DNA from: a virus | Direction: 5' to 3' (one strand) | DNA length: 64,000 nt | Virus record (IMG/VR): IMGVR_UViG_3300011113_000649 | Span: 1 to 64,000 of that record | Shown: positions 6,132 through 58,062 of the stretch, one piece after another | Layout: the number at the start of each line of letters is the position of its first letter | How positions within the stretch are numbered: the stretch's first letter is position 1 | Notes under the pieces: model-generated | What the model was told of the DNA's origin: nothing | What the model saw: only the letters and a program-made list of their open reading frames with translations | Database searches by the model: none | Translations under genes and position numbers: made by a program

Positions 6132-6142
6132 TGTGTATAATT
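6132..6142 (+). promoter_or_regulatory. Putative late promoter motif (TGTGTATAA)
   Basis: Intergenic variant of GGTGTAT upstream of the major tail protein. Confidence 0.45.
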
Positions 6143-12600: not shown

Positions 12601-15600
12601 TCTAAACTTGAATCAGACGCTGAAAAGGAAACAGCTTTGAAAGCTGGAAAGGTTCTCAAATTTGGATTAGCTGGTTTGCGTTTCGGCACAACTGCTGGAA
12701 TAGGTAGCGATCCAATAGCTTTATCTGAAACTGTTATGCAGAAGGGCGCGGAGGTAAAAAGAAAATTTTCTGGAGATATGCCTGGTTCTTTTACTGGATA
12801 CGAAGCTATAAGACCAATTAAACAGGGTCCTCTAGTACAAATAATACCTGGGGCATTAAGTAAACAATTTAATAAAATTTGGGCTAAAAAAATAGAGGAC
12901 ACTTTATATTCTGATTTTAGTAAATCTGTTGTAAAAACAGCTCAAGAATTCGGTAATCAAATTGATGCGACAATAACCAATGATCAATCTGAAATTAGAC
13001 AAAGAATAGATAATGCCGGATTTTCTAATGTAATAGGTGCCGCTCTTGAAAGTTCTATAGGACTCCTTGGAGCCCCTTATATACAGAAAGAGGAAAAAAC
13101 CAAATCTATTGACTTCCCAACAGGCTTAGGTTCGTCTGCTAAATTATTTGGTATACCATCTAATATACCAACAGATATTACTAGAACTATTGGCGACCCT
13201 GGAAAAAGCGTGCCAGACTATATTGATCAAATACAGAGATTTTTAGAAAAAACTCCAAATGGACAAAAATATCTTAGCGAATTCTTACAAAGAAAAGCAA
13301 AAGGTGGTAGTGTCGCGATTAAAAAATTTGCTTTTGGAGGTCGTTCAGATGGTCCAGATTTTGACGAGATACGTCAACAAATAATAGATAAGTATCCAGA
13401 TATACAATTTAGAATCAGCAAACGAAAGAGTGGATTTGGATATAATTTAATGGGTGCCCTTAAATCAAAGGGAGGTTTATTTGGCAATAGTGAGTTAAGT
13501 TTTCAACAGCCCGGAAATCTCAAACAATTACAAGAGTATTCAGATAAATTAGCTGCTAAATTAATATCTTCGGAACAATTGGCGGCTGGTGGATTTGCTT
13601 CTGGCGGAAGTGTTCCCGCTATGGTTAGTAACGGAGAAGCTTTTGTTCCTCCAAAATTAGCTAAAAAAATTGGATATGCAAAATTAGATAAGATGAATCA
13701 GGCTGATCGTAATGGAATGAAAGGTTTTGCTGGTGGTGGGGTTAGCGTATTTAATGGGCCGGGTAGTGGAACTAGTGATAGTATTGGTCCGATTGGATTA
13801 CCACAAGGTAGTTATGTTATACGAGAAAAAGCCACCAAGGCTTTGGGACTAAACAAGGGTGGTAGTGTTGGTGTACAGCGTTTTGAAAACGGTGGTAGAT
13901 TAAACAAAGCAGAACGCAAAAGAATTAAAGAACAATATTTAGCAGAGCAACGAGGCGGCATAACTAGAGAAGAAGCACGAACAGTTGGTATGCCACGCCC
14001 AGATTATGGGGCTGGTGCTAGTCGTAGAAAGGACGTTACTGCTACTCCTCAGGGATTACAAAATATTAAAAATATTGAAGGTGAAGTTTTAAATAATTAT
14101 GGTAAATTATATGCCGAAGAGAAAAAAAGGATAGATCAATTATATGATAATTTAGAAAACAAAGCACGAGAGGAATTTTTTGAAGGTACCATAGACGCAG
14201 ACGAGCTGACAGACAGGATGATGACTTTATATGAAGCTAAAATATTATCCAAAAGCCAGACTAAGGCTAAATTAACAGCACAAGTTAAACCAGCACAATT
14301 AAAAGCTGTAGAAGATTATACCGCTGGCAAACAAACGAAACAAATAACTACTAGAAAAACGCAAGATAATAAAATATTCGAGCAGGGAATTGAGTCTAAA
14401 ATGGCCTCCGTGGCCGAAGAGGTAAAATCTAAATATCAAGACTTACTAAATCAAGAAGTTCAATCATTAAAAGCTTTCTATAAAGAGAGGGCTGCGAAAG
14501 TAAAAGCAGAGGGTGGTGATGTTGCTGCTGTAGTAGCAGAATATAAATCAGCCTTAAACGACGCTAAACAGTCTATGGAAAGTGGGATGAGAGCTGAGAC
14601 AAAGCAACAACAAGCAGCCGTTCCAGATAAAATTGTTGAATCTAAAAAACAAGAAGTACAAGCTTTACGAAGTGCGGCCGATCCGTTTTATGAAGCTAAA
14701 AAAGCTGCTGATGAATATGCGGTTACGGTAGGCGATGCCGCAGAAACCTCTAAACAAATGGCAGAAGAACAAAAAGCCTATATAGAATTTTTAGCTAGAC
14801 AAAAGGGTCTTAGTTCTAAAGGTTTAAAACTACAACTCGCTAAAGATTTAGGTAAAGAATCTTATGAAATTAAACAAAAATCAAGATTTGGACAAGAAGA
14901 AATTAAAGCGATGGCTGCTGGGAGTTCTAGAACCTTACAAGGAAAAGACGTTAAAGCACTATTAGAGCCTGGTGTAGACACTCAAGAATCTCGTCAAGTT
15001 CAAGATATAGTCAATAGTTTTGAAGCTAAAATTAAAGAGATCAATCCTACAATAGGAGGAGACAAAGCTAGAGACGCTGCTATTGCATTGGCCACAGGGT
15101 TAGCGGCTGGCGATCAGTCAGTTAAACAAATTATTCAATCACACGAAGGACTTCACAAAGCAATTGGCACCCAAATAAGCGATACCGATGCGGCTAACGA
15201 AGCTCTACGTAGAACTGCTGCTGCTGCCGGTATGAGTGAAGAAGCCTTGAGATCACTGGTTTCTAAAACTGATATTGATCGTCAAGAATTTGCACAATCT
15301 CCAGAAGGTAAGAGATATGGAGTTATTGCAGAAATGATGCCCGATTTTACTAAACAATTCTCTGAGAGCGGTTTGGGTAAAGGTCTTGGTAAAGTAGATG
15401 ATTTTTTTAGTGGTAAGGGAGGCAGATTAAGTAAACTTGCTGGTAAAGCTGGTGGTTTTACCGGATTGGCCACAGCAGCCACAGCAGCTATTCCATTTGC
15501 AGCAGAAAGCTTACTAACAAAAGAACAAAAGAAAGACCCAAATATAGCAGGAGGTATTTCTGCGGCAACTGGAGCCCTTTCTATGGGTGCGGCTGCATAT

Positions 15601-51287: not shown

Positions 51288-51425
51288 CTATCTCCTATTA
51301 ATTAGTGTTAAAAGACCTAATATTACCAATCCTTTAAAAGATTTTTCTATCATTAGAGTATCAGAGGTAATATTGAAATATAAATAAAAAAATAACATTA
51401 TAAAAAAACAAATCTTATACATCAT
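51288..51425 (-). CDS. 45-aa hydrophobic protein (not in ORF track)
   Basis: MMYKICFFIMLFFYLYFNITSDTLMIEKSFKGLVILGLLTLINRR; ATGA overlap; fills the gap. Confidence 0.55.
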   Translation of the reverse strand: MMYKICFFIMLFFYLYFNITSDTLMIEKSFKGLVILGLLTLINRR

Positions 51426-51892
51426 ATTACACCACACAAATGTTTCAGCCACGAAAGATTTGGTTCTATATATATAATATTAATGCCACTCATTTGTACA
51501 AAAGTTGTAAATCTTTTTTCAGCATCAGCATCAAATAAATGTGTACCATGATCTTTTGTCATGACTATAGTACGAATACCTTCTTGCCACAAAGCCATAA
51601 CACAATCATTACAACATTGTCCTGTAACATACGCGATACCATTTTCTGGTCGTATAATACAATTAGATAATGCATTACGTTCAGCATGAATCATCCAAGA
51701 ATATTTTTCCGGTCGTGTTTTGGGCAATAGACCATCGTCTAAGCCTCGAGCAAATCCATTATATCCTATTCCTAGTATACGGTGATTATTGTCAGTAATC
51801 ACGCACCCATGCTGAGTTTGTAGGTCATGACTACGTTGAGAAACAACTTTAGCCAAGCCTAAAAAATAATCTATCCAGTTTGGTCGTTCCAT
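51422..51892 (-). CDS. dCMP deaminase
   Basis: GYNG, HAERNA, CNDC. Confidence 0.88.
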   Translation of the reverse strand: MERPNWIDYFLGLAKVVSQRSHDLQTQHGCVITDNNHRILGIGYNGFARGLDDGLLPKTRPEKYSWMIHAERNALSNCIIRPENGIAYVTGQCCNDCVMALWQEGIRTIVMTKDHGTHLFDADAEKRFTTFVQMSGINIIYIEPNLSWLKHLCGVI

Positions 51893-51899
51893 AATAAAT

Positions 51900-51927
51900 A
51901 TTATAGCACGACGAGTCGTTTGGTCAA
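51900..51927 (-). promoter_or_regulatory. Sigma70-type promoter, probably leaderless transcript
   Basis: TTGACC-16 nt-TATAAT with TGn extension, 7 nt before the ATG; no RBS. Confidence 0.7.
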
Positions 51928-52175
51928 GATGTCTTTGTAAGCTTATTATAGAGAATTAGTGTTAAAACGCCGCCAGCAATACCCATAAAAATACCAGATG
52001 GACTTAGGCTGTTATATGTTCCTAAAAGATATAAAACAGCACCACCCATGTATGAGCCAGCAACACCAACCGCTACGGTTTGAAAAAAACCCATACGCTC
52101 TTCACCAGGAACGAGAGATTTCGCAATACTGCCTACGAACAAACCATATACACACCAGACTAATAAATTAAACAT
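51924..52175 (-). CDS. GlsB/YeaQ/YmgE (transglycosylase-associated) membrane protein
   Basis: GLFVGSIAKSLVPG..GVAGSYMGG; three hydrophobic helices. Confidence 0.85.
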   Translation of the reverse strand: MFNLLVWCVYGLFVGSIAKSLVPGEERMGFFQTVAVGVAGSYMGGAVLYLLGTYNSLSPSGIFMGIAGGVLTLILYNKLTKTS

Positions 52176-52557
52176 TTGCAGCCTCCACTAGAGTAATTAC
52201 TTCATCATCCCTGAGGTTTTCTCCTACATCTAAAATAGAACTAAGCAACGAGGTTCCATATTTTTTATACTGATCATTAGACATTTGTTTACGAATAACT
52301 TTTTTAATTCTCAACTTGGTAAACCAACCTCTTTTGATAGAATATGACTTAATTTCATCCCCGTATAAGTTGTATTTGTCTTGTGCTGATGACAGACTGA
52401 GATTTTTATTTTTGTTGCATTCTTGCAGAATTCTTATAAGGGTCAATGTTATACTAATAATCATTAATATCGCCATAACACTGCCAAAGTTTTCTTCTTC
52501 TGGTATGTGTGATTCTTTTCTAATTTTCTCGGCTATGTTTTTTAAATTGTCGTTCAT
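52168..52557 (-). CDS. Single-TM membrane protein
   Basis: FGSVMAILMIISITLTLIRILQEC. Confidence 0.65.
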   Translation of the reverse strand: MNDNLKNIAEKIRKESHIPEEENFGSVMAILMIISITLTLIRILQECNKNKNLSLSSAQDKYNLYGDEIKSYSIKRGWFTKLRIKKVIRKQMSNDQYKKYGTSLLSSILDVGENLRDDEVITLVEAANV

Positions 52558-52865
52558 TTTTGATGTACTCTGGTTTTACATTCTGGTTTTAATATTACTG
52601 GTGGATGAATTACCTCAGAATCTTTGGTTTCTGGTTCACAATATCCACAATCAACCATTTTGATGCCGTCTCCGCTTAAATATTTACCAGCACCCTTACA
52701 AACAGGACAGTTTTTTCTAGGATATTTTTTTTCTGTATCTATGTGTTTGCTTTTTATAATAGATCCAGCTAAAGTTACTGCTGCGGTTGTTGTGCCATTA
52801 TAACCATAATCACTATGTGCAATAACAATAGAAGATATTAATATTAAACCAAGAATTTTATTCAT
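52554..52865 (-). CDS. Exported protein with DnaJ-like Zn finger
   Basis: Signal-like N-terminus; CPVCKGAG...CGYC. Confidence 0.65.
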   Translation of the reverse strand: MNKILGLILISSIVIAHSDYGYNGTTTAAVTLAGSIIKSKHIDTEKKYPRKNCPVCKGAGKYLSGDGIKMVDCGYCEPETKDSEVIHPPVILKPECKTRVHQK

Positions 52866-53019
52866 CTTGTTTTCTCCATCTTGGACGCCGTTTTTTATCT
52901 GGTTTGGGAAAATCTATTTCTTCTACGCTTTTTGGTGACAAGATTTTTATTAAACTTAATATAAAACTAGAAATAATACTTAATAGTCTATTCAGAACGA
53001 TCTTATCAATTATTTTCAT
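52858..53019 (-). CDS. 53-aa amphipathic/basic protein (not in ORF track)
   Basis: MKIIDKIVLNRLLSIISSFILSLIKILSPK...KKRRPRWRKQDE; overlaps both neighbours. Confidence 0.65.
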   Translation of the reverse strand: MKIIDKIVLNRLLSIISSFILSLIKILSPKSVEEIDFPKPDKKRRPRWRKQDE

Positions 53020-53942
53020 AAATAATCCTCAAAACCATAAGAGGGAAGTTTTTGAACAGGAAACCCATCAAAGTTGCTAAACGCATAAGCGCCATTTTGT
53101 TTAAGCATCCCTGCTGCTGTATCTGAATCAATTAAAAACGAACCATCTGGTATTTTACCCCACGCTGGATGACCACCATCATTCCATTTACCCCAACTGT
53201 TTTGAATTAGAAATGCTAGTTCGCCATTAGTATCATCACAAGCTATCCAGGCCATAGCATGGGCCCAACTTCCACTGACTTTTGCGAAACCCTTACTATC
53301 TCTTTTGTTACTAAATCCATAACTAGAACATACGGATAAGCCATATCCATTAGCTAAAGCATCTCTAGCTTCTTCTATAGTCGTAACCAAACTAACAGTT
53401 TTAATTTGATGGTCATTAGCTAAGTCTATAACCTTGTCAGGCAATCCTCTAGCACCCCAACCTGCACCAAGATTTCCATTATATTTAGTAAAGTCAGCAA
53501 CACCCCTATAGTCTTTTCTAACTAGAACCCCACCACTCTGGCTAACGAATGTAGCAGCTCTAGAGCAGCTCATGCCTTGTCCTCCGTGACCACGAGCGCC
53601 ATAAATTCCTTCGGTTGCTCCTCGCGCTACCCAACTCTCTTTGTCTCTATGTACATCAATTTCTACGGCTCTACTCACGTCTAAAGCATTTCGTGTTGCA
53701 TGAGACACACAATCTCCAGTAGTTTGTCTTTCATTATAAGGGTTTTTATCAAACTTTAAAACACTTTTATATGGGATGCTGAGTTTGCCTTTACCACTAT
53801 TTTTTATTTTTTTAGCGCCGTCAGCAAAATATGCATATTTAGAACTCTCCATAAGTTCATCAAACATGTGTTGCTCCCACAAGCAACCCTGAAATCCTTT
53901 TTTATAATTTAGATAAAGATCATTTGGAGAAAATTTAGACAT
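53016..53942 (-). CDS. Papain-like (C1) cysteine protease
   Basis: QTTGDCVSHA (Gln/Cys), AHAMAW (His), QNSWG (Asn). Confidence 0.88.
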   Translation of the reverse strand: MSKFSPNDLYLNYKKGFQGCLWEQHMFDELMESSKYAYFADGAKKIKNSGKGKLSIPYKSVLKFDKNPYNERQTTGDCVSHATRNALDVSRAVEIDVHRDKESWVARGATEGIYGARGHGGQGMSCSRAATFVSQSGGVLVRKDYRGVADFTKYNGNLGAGWGARGLPDKVIDLANDHQIKTVSLVTTIEEARDALANGYGLSVCSSYGFSNKRDSKGFAKVSGSWAHAMAWIACDDTNGELAFLIQNSWGKWNDGGHPAWGKIPDGSFLIDSDTAAGMLKQNGAYAFSNFDGFPVQKLPSYGFEDYL

Positions 53943-54436
53943 TATTTGCTACCCTCATAAACGGCCCAGGCCAAAGCTCTAAACGCTTCAACAGCTTTTT
54001 TTCTTAATTCAGCATCTAGTGGGACTATATCATCACCAATTTGACTACCTATAATAACCTGAGAAGCATCAGATAGTCCTGGATATTTATTTTTTATATT
54101 CATTCTCAACATTAAACCACCCAAAGAATTAGCTTGTCTAATTTCTTCTGTTGTTTTCACCACTTCGTTTTCACCATCAAGTTCTATAAGAGTAGCCAAA
54201 TCCATATACAAATCAGATAGTCTTTGAGCATCTTGTGTTTTTTCTTTTAATGAGATATTTTTAAGAATATCAATTATTAATTTACATTTTGCCCTGAGAT
54301 CAGAATTTTCTGGAGGAGTTATAATAACTATATTATCTACAACAACAGGTTTATTAATTGGTAGATTAAAATTAGGTTTAGTAATTCCAATTAGTATTAA
54401 TACAGCGGCTAAAATCCATAAAAAGTTTTTATTCAT
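53942..54436 (-). CDS. Membrane-anchored/exported helical protein
   Basis: MNKNFLWILAAVLILIG N-terminal hydrophobic segment. Confidence 0.65.
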   Translation of the reverse strand: MNKNFLWILAAVLILIGITKPNFNLPINKPVVVDNIVIITPPENSDLRAKCKLIIDILKNISLKEKTQDAQRLSDLYMDLATLIELDGENEVVKTTEEIRQANSLGGLMLRMNIKNKYPGLSDASQVIIGSQIGDDIVPLDAELRKKAVEAFRALAWAVYEGSK

Positions 54437-54842
54437 TGTTTTTCTTTCCACATACATTAGGACTTAAATAAGGAAACATCTCATCAGCAACTTCCACCGC
54501 TTTATTACAGCCACACCTTAATGCTAGGTCTCTCGTTTCTTTCCATGAAACAATGAGCTTAAAAAAAGAATTGTCAGGTTCTTCTTGGCTATTTTCTGCG
54601 ATAGTTGTAGCCAAAACTAACGGAGCATTTGTTGAAACGGTAACGGCTGGGACTACGGGCTTTGTTTCTTTTTTAGTCAAAATTCCTTTCACAGATTCTG
54701 CCAATAGGTTTATAGCGCCCTGAACTGGGCTTAGCTTGTCTTTAAAAAGAACCCATATTACAATGCCTATGCCAGCATAAAGCATCAAATCAGTTGAGCT
54801 TAAGCCTTTGCTAAATTCTTCAAAACTCTGAGTAAAATTCAT
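54429..54842 (-). CDS. Single-TM membrane protein
   Basis: LMLYAGIGIVIWVLF. Confidence 0.65.
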   Translation of the reverse strand: MNFTQSFEEFSKGLSSTDLMLYAGIGIVIWVLFKDKLSPVQGAINLLAESVKGILTKKETKPVVPAVTVSTNAPLVLATTIAENSQEEPDNSFFKLIVSWKETRDLALRCGCNKAVEVADEMFPYLSPNVCGKKNNE

Positions 54843-54843
54843 A

Positions 54844-55260
54844 TCAAGCCTCTTTATTCATTTTTTTAAGAAAAACACCAGTATTTCTGAAAGTTGTCAC
54901 TAGCGCATCTATTGTTGCGCCAACAAGTATCATCAAAAATGCTTTGACATACTTATGTATAATAGGCTCTAAAACATTAGGAACAACAGGAATATCCACA
55001 ACAACAAACACGCTATCGTAGAACCTATTTAATAAATCCATAGCCAAAGCTTTTTTGTCTGAACTACTAATATCATGTCCTAATTTCTCTATTATTTGTA
55101 TAACACTAGCTGTGGCTAATTGTAAAATCTTCCAAGCTTCACTTATCGCTAATCTTTTTACTTCTGCTAGGCTGTTTTTTACGTTTAGTATTAGTTTGTC
55201 TACTTCTGCTCTTATTAGGTCTTGGCTCAATAGTGGTGTTACTGTTTTGATGTCGCTCAT
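54844..55260 (-). CDS. Helical hypothetical protein
   Basis: DKKALAM..DIPVVP.LE; 5' end overlapped by the upstream gene. Confidence 0.65.
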   Translation of the reverse strand: MSDIKTVTPLLSQDLIRAEVDKLILNVKNSLAEVKRLAISEAWKILQLATASVIQIIEKLGHDISSSDKKALAMDLLNRFYDSVFVVVDIPVVPNVLEPIIHKYVKAFLMILVGATIDALVTTFRNTGVFLKKMNKEA

Positions 55261-55501
55261 CTTCTGTTTCCTTTTCTTTGAACTGTTGTTTGATTTTTGT
55301 TCTACCGTTCACATATTTATATAAAATAATAAGTTGTCCACCTATTAATATACACGATTCTACACCATGAGATATGGTTGTGATAAGTTCTTCTTTTTGG
55401 CCATTATCTGTAATAAGACCAGTTAAATATAGTCCGCTAAATATAAAACTTACTAAAGTAAACCAAAATTCACTAGTTCTATATCCTGGCTTAGGTTTCA
55501 T
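55139..55501 (-). CDS. Holin-like 2-TM protein with basic tail
   Basis: KPGYRTSEFW start, two hydrophobic segments, highly basic C-terminus. Confidence 0.5.
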   Translation of the reverse strand: MKPKPGYRTSEFWFTLVSFIFSGLYLTGLITDNGQKEELITTISHGVESCILIGGQLIILYKYVNGRTKIKQQFKEKETEDERHQNSNTTIEPRPNKSRSRQTNTKRKKQPSRSKKISDK

Positions 55502-55695
55502 GCAGGGGAGTCTCCTGAATAGTATCTTGTGTCATCAAATCTAGCGTCATATTTATTTTGTATATCTGCGATAGTTGGTTGATTTGATACTGCTGTGTTC
55601 AAAGCGGAATATTCTCCAGTCCACGAACAAGTAACAACGGCTGTCCCGTTTTTTACTACCACACCACTAATTGCTGCCTGAATATCATTTGCCAT
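55498..55695 (-). CDS. Hypothetical protein
   Basis: AGGAG RBS; 65 aa. Confidence 0.6.
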   Translation of the reverse strand: MANDIQAAISGVVVKNGTAVVTCSWTGEYSALNTAVSNQPTIADIQNKYDARFDDTRYYSGDSPA

Positions 55696-55697
55696 AA

Positions 55698-56018
55698 TTA
55701 ACTCCTATCTATTCTTTCTTCTAGAGCTTCTAGTGTTTTGCCTAAAGTAGCAATTTGTATTTTTAGTTCATTCATAACCTCTATAACCTTTTGTAGAGTT
55801 ATAGATAGAGCTGTTTGGGTTTCTTTGTTTATGGCTAATCTTTCCATAATAAATTCACGATCTTTACAATATGGACTCTCGTGCTGAACCATATTACTAA
55901 TCTCTTCTTTAGTAAGAATTTTTCTACCAACTCCAACCCAAAAGCCAACCAAAGTAACAATTATGCCAATACTAGCCGAAGCCACAGACTGCCAAAAATG
56001 TAGCATTGATTCATTCAT
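55698..56018 (-). CDS. Single-TM plus coiled-coil protein (holin/antiholin-like)
   Basis: SASIGIIVTLVGFWV followed by a heptad coil. Confidence 0.5.
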   Translation of the reverse strand: MNESMLHFWQSVASASIGIIVTLVGFWVGVGRKILTKEEISNMVQHESPYCKDREFIMERLAINKETQTALSITLQKVIEVMNELKIQIATLGKTLEALEERIDRS

Positions 56019-56039
56019 TTAAATTATTCCTTTATAAGT

Positions 56040-56075
56040 AAAAAGCCAAAAGATACTAATTGCATCCTTGGCTTA
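56040..56075 (-). terminator. Rho-independent terminator
   Basis: AAGCCAAGGATGC-loop-GTATCTTTTGGCTT followed by Ts on the - strand. Confidence 0.6.
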
Positions 56076-56104
56076 ATACTAGATTAAATTATATACAAAT
56101 ATAA

Positions 56105-56674
56105 TCAGTTGGTTTTGGCCTTATAATCATCAAGTTTTGGAATTGGACTACCTTGTAGATATACCAATTCGCCAGGAACAGATTTTGTTGGAGCAGCAGC
56201 TTGGTCTGTTGAAGTGGCGGAAGTAGCACCAGTGGAAATATTCCAAAATGCGTCTACAGCACCACTTGGAAAACCAGCTTCCCATTCTCCGCTATATTCA
56301 TTCCACTTATTATTTCTAATAGCCGTTGTTGTTCTACGAGTTCTAACAACTTCTAGTTTATTAATACTTTTTGCGTTTGTGGTATCATTAGCACCACTAC
56401 GTAAAAAGTTATTAGTAACGCCAGCTAAAGATGTTGTGACCTTAGGAGCTGTTGGAGTGGCATTGTTGTAAGCAAAAGTACCGGCAGATAAAGCCTTGTC
56501 AGCATCGGCATTATCAACTACTACGTTTGCATAAACACCGACCTGAGCGGCGGCTGTGGCTTGACTTCTAACAACGTTGGAAGATACGGTGCCATTAGCG
56601 GTCATAACGCCGCCATTATTAACTGTTGATGTTGCTGTTACAGCAGACGAACCATTTTTTTGTACTGTGGCCAT
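56105..56674 (-). CDS. Ala/Thr/Asn-rich probable virion structural protein
   Basis: GGAG RBS, late motif upstream, terminator downstream, structural-type composition. Confidence 0.55.
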   Translation of the reverse strand: MATVQKNGSSAVTATSTVNNGGVMTANGTVSSNVVRSQATAAAQVGVYANVVVDNADADKALSAGTFAYNNATPTAPKVTTSLAGVTNNFLRSGANDTTNAKSINKLEVVRTRRTTTAIRNNKWNEYSGEWEAGFPSGAVDAFWNISTGATSATSTDQAAAPTKSVPGELVYLQGSPIPKLDDYKAKTN

Positions 56675-56715
56675 TTGTTACTCCGTATTGAATTGCTAAA
56701 ATCATGAATAACTTT

Positions 56716-56724
56716 TTATACACC
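56716..56724 (-). promoter_or_regulatory. Putative late promoter GGTGTATAA
   Basis: Intergenic; same motif as in the + strand structural module. Confidence 0.55.
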
Positions 56725-56725
56725 A

Positions 56726-57394
56726 CTATTCTTTTTGTTGAGTTAAATTGAATCTAAGAAAATTTTCTAATGCATGTAACGAGGTTGTTCTAAAGCCAAA
56801 TAGGCCGGATTTTATGATAGTTTCAAAATGCTTATTCTGCCAAAAATTACCAGTGCAAATTATCTTTAGGTCTTTTGAGTTAGTATACAAAAATACAGAC
56901 GCAAGTATATTATCTGCTAAATTATCTATAAAATAGCAGCTAGAAGGAAAAACATATTTTATGCCCATTTCTTCAAAAATTTCACAAGTTTTTTTTAAGC
57001 AAAAATGGTCAAATTTTCTATATTCTAGTATATATCTTACTGTAGCATTATGCGACTTAGAAATATCTACTATATTTTTGATATCATCTCTAATTTTATC
57101 GTATTTTCTATTTGCGGCCAAGACTTGAGGCATGCTAATATCTAGGGTATTAAATCCTGCTTTTAATGCTTGATCGACCGCCGAACATCTGGTTTTAGCA
57201 TCAGACACCCCCAAAGGATAATCTATCAAACAAGAAAAGTCATATCCTTCATTGATAAAAGGCTTAATAAGTTTAAAAAAATAATATGGCAGAGTGATGC
57301 TATTAACTAGATTATTCGATATAATATGTTTTAATAAGTCTCGAGCCTTAGACTCGTTAATATCCGTATCAATAATAGCAAAATCAATATACAT
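56726..57394 (-). CDS. DeoC (deoxyribose-phosphate aldolase)-like TIM barrel lacking catalytic lysines
   Basis: IDYPLG, G.NTLD, RYILE; KTSTG replaced by FPSSC. Confidence 0.65.
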   Translation of the reverse strand: MYIDFAIIDTDINESKARDLLKHIISNNLVNSITLPYYFFKLIKPFINEGYDFSCLIDYPLGVSDAKTRCSAVDQALKAGFNTLDISMPQVLAANRKYDKIRDDIKNIVDISKSHNATVRYILEYRKFDHFCLKKTCEIFEEMGIKYVFPSSCYFIDNLADNILASVFLYTNSKDLKIICTGNFWQNKHFETIIKSGLFGFRTTSLHALENFLRFNLTQQKE

Positions 57395-58062
57395 TATATT
57401 TTTTTGATGTAGTTTTTGATGTAGTCTATGTTCGGAAATTTTTTACTACCAAGAATACCATCCGCAAAGCCATAATCAACAGCTTCTTCTGCTGTTAAGA
57501 TCCAATCTCTTTTTGTTGCCAATTGTGTTACGATATGTTTTTTGGTCATCATTTTTTTCCAATTTTTTTCTTTACATATCCTACTAGACATACACCTTTC
57601 AGTAAATATATCTATCATCTTTTCGCTTTCTTTTTCACTCCAATGTATCATGCTCAATGCCGCTTTATGTTCATTATCTACGCTGATAGATCCATAATGG
57701 ATTAAAAAATTTGCATTAGGACTAAGAATTCTTAAATCTGCTGCTTGTAATAAAACTGTACTACTAGATTCTACTTTTGCATATGCTACTATACACACAG
57801 GACTTTTGCTATTTTTAATATTATCATATATGCCGAGACAGTCTTGCCAATCTCCTCCAGGTAAATGCATGTGTACTAGTATTGGATCTAATGAAAGAGT
57901 ATTAAGATATCTCAAATTTTTTTCAAAAGTTATAGCCGATCTGTAGTCTACACCGGCTTCATTCTCTCCATCAAAATAAGAATGTAAGTATATTTCTCTA
58001 TTATCTATGTCTATACTATGATTATGTATGTCGTAAAGAATATTGTTGTTTACAGTTTCCAC
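57394..58062 (-). CDS. clpP: ClpP-like serine protease
   Basis: REIYL, PGGD, VESSS (Ser), LIHYG (His), RDWILTAEEAVDYGFAD (Asp). Confidence 0.85.
   Translation of the reverse strand: METVNNNILYDIHNHSIDIDNREIYLHSYFDGENEAGVDYRSAITFEKNLRYLNTLSLDPILVHMHLPGGDWQDCLGIYDNIKNSKSPVCIVAYAKVESSSTVLLQAADLRILSPNANFLIHYGSISVDNEHKAALSMIHWSEKESEKMIDIFTERCMSSRICKEKNWKKMMTKKHIVTQLATKRDWILTAEEAVDYGFADGILGSKKFPNIDYIKNYIKKI

Follow-up and report, generated by a model that had tools for sequence, protein, structure and literature searches.

In the textbook view, lysis by tailed phages requires a peptidoglycan hydrolase. In canonical holin-endolysin(-spanin) cassettes, such as S-R-Rz/Rz1 of phage lambda and t/e of phage T4, the genes for small membrane proteins form a translationally coupled cluster with that for a hydrolase lacking a signal peptide, and share a promoter class with the structural genes. 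The same features characterize the locus described here, an operon of 11 coupled genes around a papain-family (C1-like) cysteine peptidase in the viral record IMGVR_UViG_3300011113_000649 of the IMG/VR database. The record is a single contig of 105.5 kb, whose positions 1 to 64,000 form the analyzed stretch of DNA, hereafter called the window. The contig lacks a terminal repeat, and its completeness is 76% according to CheckV. Unlike canonical cassettes, the operon encodes an enzyme with a papain-family fold, not a muramidase, amidase, M15/M23 peptidase, or CHAP domain. Furthermore, it contains neither a member of a curated holin family nor a lipoprotein o-spanin, and comprises 11 genes as opposed to three or four. 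The membrane partners, the translational coupling, the promoter class, the intact active site, and the lack of a recognizable endolysin are together best read as a lysis module. We put the chances at about even that the operon is a late lysis module with the C1 peptidase as its effector.

The peptidase is 308 amino acids (aa) long and carries the active-site residues of papain. In an alignment of 48 diverse homologs, Gln73, Cys78, His228, and Trp250 are invariant, whereas Asn248 and Ser249 are at least 90% conserved. The order Gln-Cys-His-Asn-Ser-Trp is the papain signature. The protein has neither a signal peptide nor an N-terminal hydrophobic segment. A reading of the window from its letters alone, hereafter the sequence-only reading, had named the protein a C1 protease with an intact Gln-Cys-His-Asn set and without an evident signal peptide, and the alignment and the modeled papain fold bear this out. 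The single protease sequence does not match any family in Pfam, even at E ≤ 10, or in PHROG or NCBIfam, and its comparison to the sequences of PDB entries gave nothing meaningful. Six of the 48 relatives match Peptidase_C1 (PF00112) weakly (best 3.6e-4), and three match Peptidase_C39_2. The profile of the whole family matches caricain (7.7e-7) and cathepsins among the PDB sequences, and aligns with xylellain over positions 57–277 of 297. The AlphaFold model of the peptidase has a predicted local distance difference test score (pLDDT) of 94 and a predicted template modeling score of 0.93. Foldseek identified 257 PDB matches at E ≤ 0.001, and all among the matches listed belong to the papain family.

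The best structural match according to both Foldseek (E = 1e-9) and VIA-align (Z 21.3, 233 residues, 3.0 Å) is xylellain, the C1 protease of Xylella fastidiosa (PDB 3OIS). Papain and cathepsins have VIA-align Z-scores of 17–19. Xylellain is bacterial, and its alignment starts at model residue 14, upstream of the start of mature papain. It shares, however, only 17–18% identity with the phage enzyme, does not come from a phage, and is encoded outside any operon of membrane-protein genes. The alignments of mature enzymes begin at model residues ~49–51 and those of proenzymes at residues 5–7. The first ~48 residues thus lie where the pro-segment of a zymogen would be, and the model suggests that they may inhibit the enzyme. 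Since the two-domain papain fold and the profile match are not accompanied by a match to any curated model, we conclude that the peptidase represents a divergent, unmodeled branch of the papain/cathepsin cluster, and not of the NlpC/P60-CHAP cluster.

The known wall-active cysteine peptidases fall within the NlpC/P60-CHAP cluster, which is separate from the papain/cathepsin cluster (PMC10318531). The CHAP and NlpC/P60 domains of endolysins, exemplified by the CHAP domain of LysK and the N4 domain of D29 LysA, share the Cys-His nucleophile and the papain-like core with the peptidase, and are lytic enzymes of phages. They belong, however, to a different structural cluster of the papain superfamily, whereas the phage protease bears the papain/cathepsin signature. 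Phage proteins that bear the names 'peptidoglycan binding-like' and 'N-acetylmuramidase (fragment)' are among the fold matches in BFVD that align to the C1-like model, and such a domain may therefore occur within wall-lytic architectures. A viral C1A cathepsin is found in baculoviruses, whose V-CATH is produced late as a proenzyme and breaks down host structures for the escape of progeny. The likeness seen is at the family level, both enzymes being virus-encoded members of the papain family. V-CATH differs in that it comes from a eukaryotic virus, is retained with chitinase in the endoplasmic reticulum, and acts on tissue after cell death.

We searched for a conventional endolysin with profile hidden Markov models (HMMs) in six-frame translations (E ≤ 0.01) of the 105-kb contig and of four relatives rated as 100% complete. 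The five genomes do not contain Phage_lysozyme, Amidase_2, Amidase_3, SLT, M23, M15_4, VanY, CHAP, NlpC/P60, GH25, GH19, or GH108 domains, or the wall-binding domain PG_binding_1. Positive controls worked for all the families but GH19 and GH108. The same approach detected ClpP and C1 in all five genomes, and thus works on these records. Seven of the families are absent above the threshold from eight more distant C1-bearing contigs, of which two are rated 100% complete and two 86–89%; the sole match there is to M23 and is sub-threshold. The tape-measure and tail proteins contain no Pfam domain. The 308-aa protein does not contain the catalytic domain of a known muralytic family, and the CHAP and NlpC/P60 HMMs find nothing in it. 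The absence of a muramidase, amidase, or CHAP endolysin, which the sequence-only reading had reported for the window, extends to the whole contig and its complete relatives. A canonical holin-endolysin cassette was found neither in the contig and its four complete relatives nor in the eight distant contigs.

The 11 genes of the operon occupy the minus strand from 56018 to 51924 (Table 1), and are separated by gaps of 1–2 nucleotides (nt) or overlap by 1–8 nt. The exception to this tight spacing is a 122-nt out-of-frame overlap between the genes for the 120-aa and 138-aa proteins. This overlap (55139–55260) is kept in most relatives, but not in the complete relative L046, and the overlapped stretches of both proteins are poorly conserved. 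The block had been described as 12 packed genes encoding mostly membrane proteins. All 12 minus-strand open reading frames (ORFs) are present, and 11 of them are coupled, but the gene for the 189-aa protein lies outside the operon, behind its own motif and separated by a terminator-like hairpin. The abundance of membrane proteins was confirmed by the prediction of transmembrane (TM) segments, since nine of the 11 operon proteins contain a hydrophobic segment, compared to 12 of the 143 other ORFs of the genome (Fisher p = 1e-7). The two products without such a segment are the 65-aa protein and the peptidase.

The 120-aa protein is encoded three genes upstream of the peptidase. It contains a TM segment at residues 13–31, a weaker hydrophobic stretch at residues 45–63, and a basic tail. 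Its size, TM segment, charged C-terminal tail, and location near a candidate lytic enzyme are those of a holin. The N-terminal 65 residues (KPGYRTSEFW...) are conserved, and the tail is variable and very basic, with a net charge of +11. The small proteins of the cassette, including the 120-aa protein, do not match holin families in Pfam, PHROG, or NCBIfam, and their comparison to PDB sequences likewise gave nothing meaningful. The nearest named cluster of the 120-aa protein in the ESM Atlas is Phage_holin_1 at 0.81, which is within the range of chance. The suggestion that the block encodes two holin-like proteins therefore stands with respect to topology (TM segment and basic tail), but not with respect to membership in a curated holin family.

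The 83-aa protein matches Transgly_assoc (PF04226) with E = 2.6e-5 and 24.8 bits, just under the cut-off of 25.3. Its earlier naming as a GlsB/YeaQ membrane protein agrees with this match and with the presence of three hydrophobic segments, but falls short of the cut-off score. By the same features, the protein resembles TCDB family 1.E.43, the putative transglycosylase-associated holin family comprising GlsB/YeaQ/YmgE, from which its marginal Pfam score sets it apart. The holin function of family 1.E.43 is itself unproven (PMC7593918). No lipobox of a spanin lipoprotein was found in the 11 products or in ORFs embedded in their genes, and the signal peptide of the 103-aa protein ends with ...IAHS/DY and lacks a cysteine. 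The 103-aa protein matches phrog_12574 (4e-6), a PHROG of no assigned function. The 53-aa peptide has a net charge of +6 and a maximum hydrophobic moment of 0.56. It resembles the 'disruptin' gp28 of phage phiKT (bioRxiv 10.1101/515445) in being a small cationic helical peptide encoded beside a candidate lytic enzyme where spanins are lacking. Disruptin is hydrophilic and amphipathic, with a net charge of +7 and without a hydrophobic helix (bioRxiv 10.1101/515445), whereas the helix of the 53-aa peptide is hydrophobic and could cross a membrane, and the two have no sequence similarity.

The number of genes, far above that of a minimal lysis cassette, could also indicate that the cassette serves another function in the envelope, such as superinfection exclusion, control of lysis timing, or membrane remodeling, with the protease as a regulator and not a lytic effector. 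Several of the genes, including those for the exported CxxCxGxG protein and the 137-aa protein with its Cys-containing domain, have no analog in known lysis systems. We regard this possibility as very improbable, since it leaves lysis unexplained, and the strict conservation of the catalytic residues and the one-base coupling of the protease gene to that of the 171-aa anchor suggest that the enzyme is central and not accessory.

The promoters of the genome fall into two classes, with sites at 2720, 3156, 6133, and 56716 of the window and at contig positions 85692, 86491, 90985, and 97341. Class A, CTTGAC-N16/17-TATAAT, is located upstream of the dCMP deaminase gene and several other metabolic genes. 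The dCMP deaminase promoter matches the consensus at 11 of 12 positions and has an extended −10 element, in agreement with the new sigma-70 promoter that had been noted downstream of the block. Class B is defined by the core GGTGTAT, seven of whose 13 copies lie in intergenic DNA, which makes up 4% of the genome (p = 2e-7). These intergenic copies are located 26–50 nt upstream of gene starts. The core heads the 25-kb structural operon, at its first genes (2720, 3156), and the variant GTGTATAA at 6133 precedes the gene for a 376-aa structural protein. Class B motifs also precede the genes for the 189-aa protein, an exported trypsin, and homing-endonuclease-like proteins. The sequence-only reading had assigned the block an upstream motif in common with the structural genes. 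This is true of the core, but the exact 9-mer GGTGTATAA, with only two copies in the window, shows no enrichment. As proposed, the block belongs to a promoter class different from that of the sigma-70-driven nucleotide-metabolism genes downstream, and in common with the structural operon.

Relatives keep the class B motif upstream of the homolog of the 189-aa gene, and where genes are inserted, it is located directly before the 106-aa or 120-aa gene. The hairpin between the 189-aa gene and the operon has a folding energy of −22.6 kcal/mol (z = −3.73), none of 200 shuffled sequences folds equally well, and relatives have counterparts. Since the only motif before the hairpin in this genome is the degenerate copy TTGTATATAAT, the operon may be expressed by read-through past the hairpin. 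Because of the motif in common with the structural genes, it is reasonable to infer that the operon is expressed late.

We propose the following sequence of events for a lysis module with the peptidase as effector. Transcription would begin late from the GGTGTAT-type promoter, and may in part read through the hairpin after the highly expressed 189-aa gene. The peptidase would build up in the cytoplasm, possibly kept inactive by its pro-segment-like N-terminal stretch. The 171-aa signal-anchored protein would be produced in a fixed ratio to the peptidase, alongside several small membrane proteins. The inner membrane would be permeabilized by at least one of them, the candidates being the basic-tailed 120-aa protein, the 138-aa protein, and the GlsB-type protein. 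The peptidase would then be released, or activated with its 171-aa partner, and at the envelope would cut a load-bearing peptide bond, either in the stem peptides or cross-links of peptidoglycan, or in proteins that tether or form the envelope. Because a spanin-type lipoprotein is missing, the outer layer may be left to the 53-aa cationic peptide and the remaining exported proteins.

The module is conserved among relatives of the phage, as a tblastn comparison of the window proteins with 80 related IMG/VR loci shows. The block from the 120-aa gene to the GlsB gene was found in 72–79 of the 80 loci, and the gene order survives in contigs whose C1 proteins are 51–57% identical. The recurrent order is ClpP, DeoC-like, 189 aa, 106, 65, 120, 138, 137, 171, C1, 53, 103, 129, GlsB, and dCMP deaminase. 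The stop codon of the 171-aa gene overlaps the start of the protease gene by one base in nearly all relatives. Genes inserted in the block of some relatives encode fibre-like proteins (Mtd_N, fn3), a trypsin-like protease, and glycosyltransferases, and in locus L099 the cluster of C1 and TM proteins abuts tail genes. In a distant set of 19 non-redundant loci, with C1 identities of 32–73% and guanine-cytosine (GC) contents of 0.32–0.65, TM segments are present in the products of 20 of 29 C1-adjacent genes, compared to 38 of 251 genes more than three positions away (p = 3e-9). The association of the protease with membrane proteins is thus ancient and general. The ClpP gene (window 56726–58062), which is coupled to the DeoC-like gene, is the sole gene of the ClpP family in each of the five related genomes, and is always three genes upstream of the cassette.

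The link to membrane proteins, kept over deep divergence, argues against the possibility that the protease processes or degrades proteins inside the cell or at the membrane, acting in host takeover, amino-acid recycling, or the destruction of defense proteins or regulators. In that case, the membrane proteins would position or regulate the protease, and an unrecognized enzyme would lyse the cell. The lack of a signal peptide fits such a role, as do the extreme conservation of the protease and the inteins in its active site, which resemble those of core enzymes, and the location of the block between ClpP and nucleotide-metabolism genes. The genome encodes further proteases, namely ClpP and the exported trypsin under a GGTGTAT motif, and the pro-segment-like N-terminus of the model suggests a controlled activation. 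In high-GC relatives, the C1 gene is located beside a gene for a ligase-SNF2 helicase. In contrast, the promoter class in common with the structural genes speaks for a different role, and lysis would remain unexplained, as recognizable muralytic enzymes are missing from 13 of the 13 C1-bearing genomes tested. On balance, we find a processing or degradative role rather unlikely.

Two additional candidates for a place in this picture were discarded. The large gene before C1 in the high-GC relatives had been taken for a tape-measure gene, but encodes the ligase-SNF2 helicase, so that the position of C1 there does not speak for lysis. Nor does the exported trypsin belong to the cassette throughout. 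In relative L021, a different trypsin-like gene is located inside the cassette. The trypsin-family protease of the present genome (contig 90176–90943) has a signal peptide and intact His, Asp, and Ser residues (GDSGGG), and is located behind a GTGTAT-type motif.

The protease family is large. More than 2,000 close homologs were found in a collection clustered at 90% identity, most of which are 79–92% identical to the protease among the matches listed, and the metagenomic family comprises 1,449 clusters at 50% identity. Each genome tested has one copy of C1, to which a single genome adds an intein-bearing paralog. The complete relative L046 encodes a second, far more divergent C1 paralog of 579 aa in one open frame (13263–15002; G001 25.6–26.9 kb), ~5 kb downstream of the main copy. 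At least 120 long homologs were found, all of which, among the matches listed, bear inteins, and none is a wall-binding fusion; ten of the longer representatives contain no Pfam domain. Mapping of 175 long homologs revealed ~134 insertions at three hot spots, which are inteins with homing endonucleases. About 105 of the inteins are located immediately before Cys78, so that the catalytic cysteine serves as the +1 nucleophile, ~19 immediately after His228, and ~10 at Asn248/Ser249 or after Gly251. Since the inteins target catalytic residues, the active site is the most constrained part of the protein, and the gene and its protease activity are under strong selection.

Several points weigh against a lytic role of the peptidase. 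We know of no papain-cluster (C1) enzyme that cuts peptidoglycan. The protease has no wall-binding domain, and its long homologs are intein forms and not fusions. It is far more conserved than its neighbors, with a median identity of 81% compared to 50–58% (ribonucleotide reductase reaches 88% and ClpP 66%), and is heavily invaded by inteins, a pattern seen more typically in core enzymes of metabolism or replication than in endolysins. The membrane proteins do not match any curated holin or spanin family in Pfam, PHROG, or NCBIfam, and the timing of expression is deduced only from motifs. The searches for GH19 and GH108 were run without a positive control, and since the structural proteins are too divergent for Pfam and PHROG, a very divergent conventional endolysin could be hidden among the proteins of the genome.

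A farther-reaching proposal is that the lineage lyses its hosts by proteolysis, so that a papain-family protease, released and activated through membrane partners of its own, wholly replaces the muralytic endolysin, cleaves either proteins of the envelope or an unusual peptide bond in the wall, and represents a new class of lysis effector across hosts of varied GC content. We consider this unlikely. If the peptidase is the lytic effector, the chemistries of endolysins widen, and a new enzyme family gains a lytic activity. An enzyme that cuts the peptides of peptidoglycan would be the first endolysin of the C1 cluster, and one that cuts envelope proteins would constitute a proteolytic lysis system. 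If the peptidase is not the effector, these phages hide an unrecognized endolysin, and C1 serves something essential enough to draw inteins at all three catalytic positions.

It is also conceivable that the protease matures virion proteins, such as those of the head or the 3244-aa tape-measure protein. Neither an S78 nor an S77 prohead protease was detected in the five genomes, although the S77 search had no positive control, and the nearby ClpP is the sole recognized candidate. The adjacent 189-aa gene, and also the fibre-like insertions of relatives, resemble late or structural genes. On the other side, ClpP-type enzymes commonly serve as prohead proteases and one is present, and the prohead proteases of tailed phages of which we know are serine or assemblin-like enzymes and not C1 peptidases. 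In addition, the C1 gene is located outside the head and tail module in this genome and is coupled to membrane-protein genes on both sides. Altogether, a function in maturation seems improbable.

The sequence-only reading had proposed a holin-released proteolysis of a proteinaceous wall, either an S-layer or a Planctomycetota-like wall of a host without a conventional sacculus. No peptidoglycan-directed domain was found in the complete relatives, including in their tail proteins and including PG_binding_1, and two proteases, C1 and the exported trypsin, look late-expressed from their motifs, which would suit such a target. The features of the genome, however, point to another host. Shine-Dalgarno cores are present upstream of 40% of the genes, compared to a background of 6%, which, along with the sigma-70 consensus promoters and with DnaB and ClpP of bacterial type, speaks for an ordinary bacterium, not a Bacteroidota-like one. 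Moreover, the GC contents of phages of the C1 family span 32–65%, which indicates many different hosts. Metagenome-assembled genomes (MAGs) provide no backing either. Five relative contigs (L081–L085) are placed in MAGs labeled as Alphaproteobacteria, Flavobacteriales, and Promethearchaeota, two of them in one Asgard bin. The labels are mutually inconsistent and thus probably reflect mis-binned phage DNA. The claim of an S-layer or Planctomycetota-like wall therefore finds no support, and we think that there is little chance of it being correct.

The contigs that encode members of the protease family are 100–240 kb long and come from freshwater and sediment metagenomes. The IMG/VR relatives include contigs of up to 159–233 kb, four of which are rated 100% complete, with direct terminal repeats in one of these four. 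The cassette, the protease, and two distant members of the protease family have no relative among 50,697 GenBank phage records in blastn and tblastn searches, and neither does the 376-aa structural protein. The nearest phage homologs of DnaB, from Bacillus phages, are only 28% identical. By these sequence comparisons, the lineage is very isolated and without cultured relatives. It is abundant and diverse, yet has no member among the GenBank records. The published 'moraphage' lineage was considered as the identity of the group and rejected; moraphage is T4-like. None of ten large structural proteins matches a PHROG, and none of eight structural proteins, five of which are among these ten, matches Pfam. 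The 3244-aa tape-measure-like protein and other large structural and tail proteins are encoded at 1–28500 of the window and likewise have no match in Pfam or PHROG.

Table 1 Features of the peptidase operon and its surroundings in the window.
Feature	Position in window	Strand	Basis or remark
GGTGTATAA, copy of class B promoter-like motif with core GGTGTAT	56716..56724	-	42 nt upstream of 189-aa gene
189-aa Thr/Ser/Ala/Asn-rich protein without TM segment; separate transcription unit	56105..56674	-	ORF; conserved beside cassette even in distant relatives
Degenerate motif copy TTGTATATAAT	just upstream of hairpin 56037..56080	-	sequence
Terminator-like hairpin followed by U-run, between 189-aa gene and operon	56037..56080	-	folding
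106-aa protein; N-terminal TM segment, then conserved coiled-coil-like region; i-spanin/antiholin-like topology	55698..56018	-	no family match
65-aa soluble protein	55498..55695	-	ORF
120-aa holin-like protein	55139..55501	-	topology
138-aa protein; two C-terminal hydrophobic segments; first ~30 residues (in overlap) not conserved	54844..55260	-	sequence
137-aa protein; N-terminal TM anchor and conserved Cys-containing C-terminal domain	54429..54842	-	sequence
171-aa signal-anchored protein; candidate membrane partner of protease	53942..54457	-	sequence
308-aa divergent papain-family (C1-like) cysteine peptidase without signal peptide	53016..53942	-	profile and fold
53-aa peptide; hydrophobic, partly amphipathic helix (residues 7–24); basic tail KKRRPRWRK; net charge +6	52858..53019	-	
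103-aa exported protein; signal peptide without lipobox; conserved zinc-finger-like CPVCKGAGK...CGYC	52554..52865	-	
129-aa single-pass membrane protein	52168..52557	-	
83-aa GlsB/YeaQ/YmgE-type membrane protein; three hydrophobic segments	51924..52175	-	Pfam PF04226
Sigma-70-type promoter TTGACC-16-TGcTATAAT (class A); start of dCMP deaminase/ribonucleotide reductase unit	51900..51927	-	

The gene for the 189-aa protein has the ribosome-binding site GGAG, and the AlphaFold model of the protein is unusable (pLDDT 41.6). A search of the ESM Atlas with the 171-aa protein was uninformative. Beyond the operon, an ORF for a 54-aa protein with two hydrophobic segments (51288–51452) overlaps the 3' end of the dCMP deaminase gene, and is kept in 34 related loci with a median identity of 47%.

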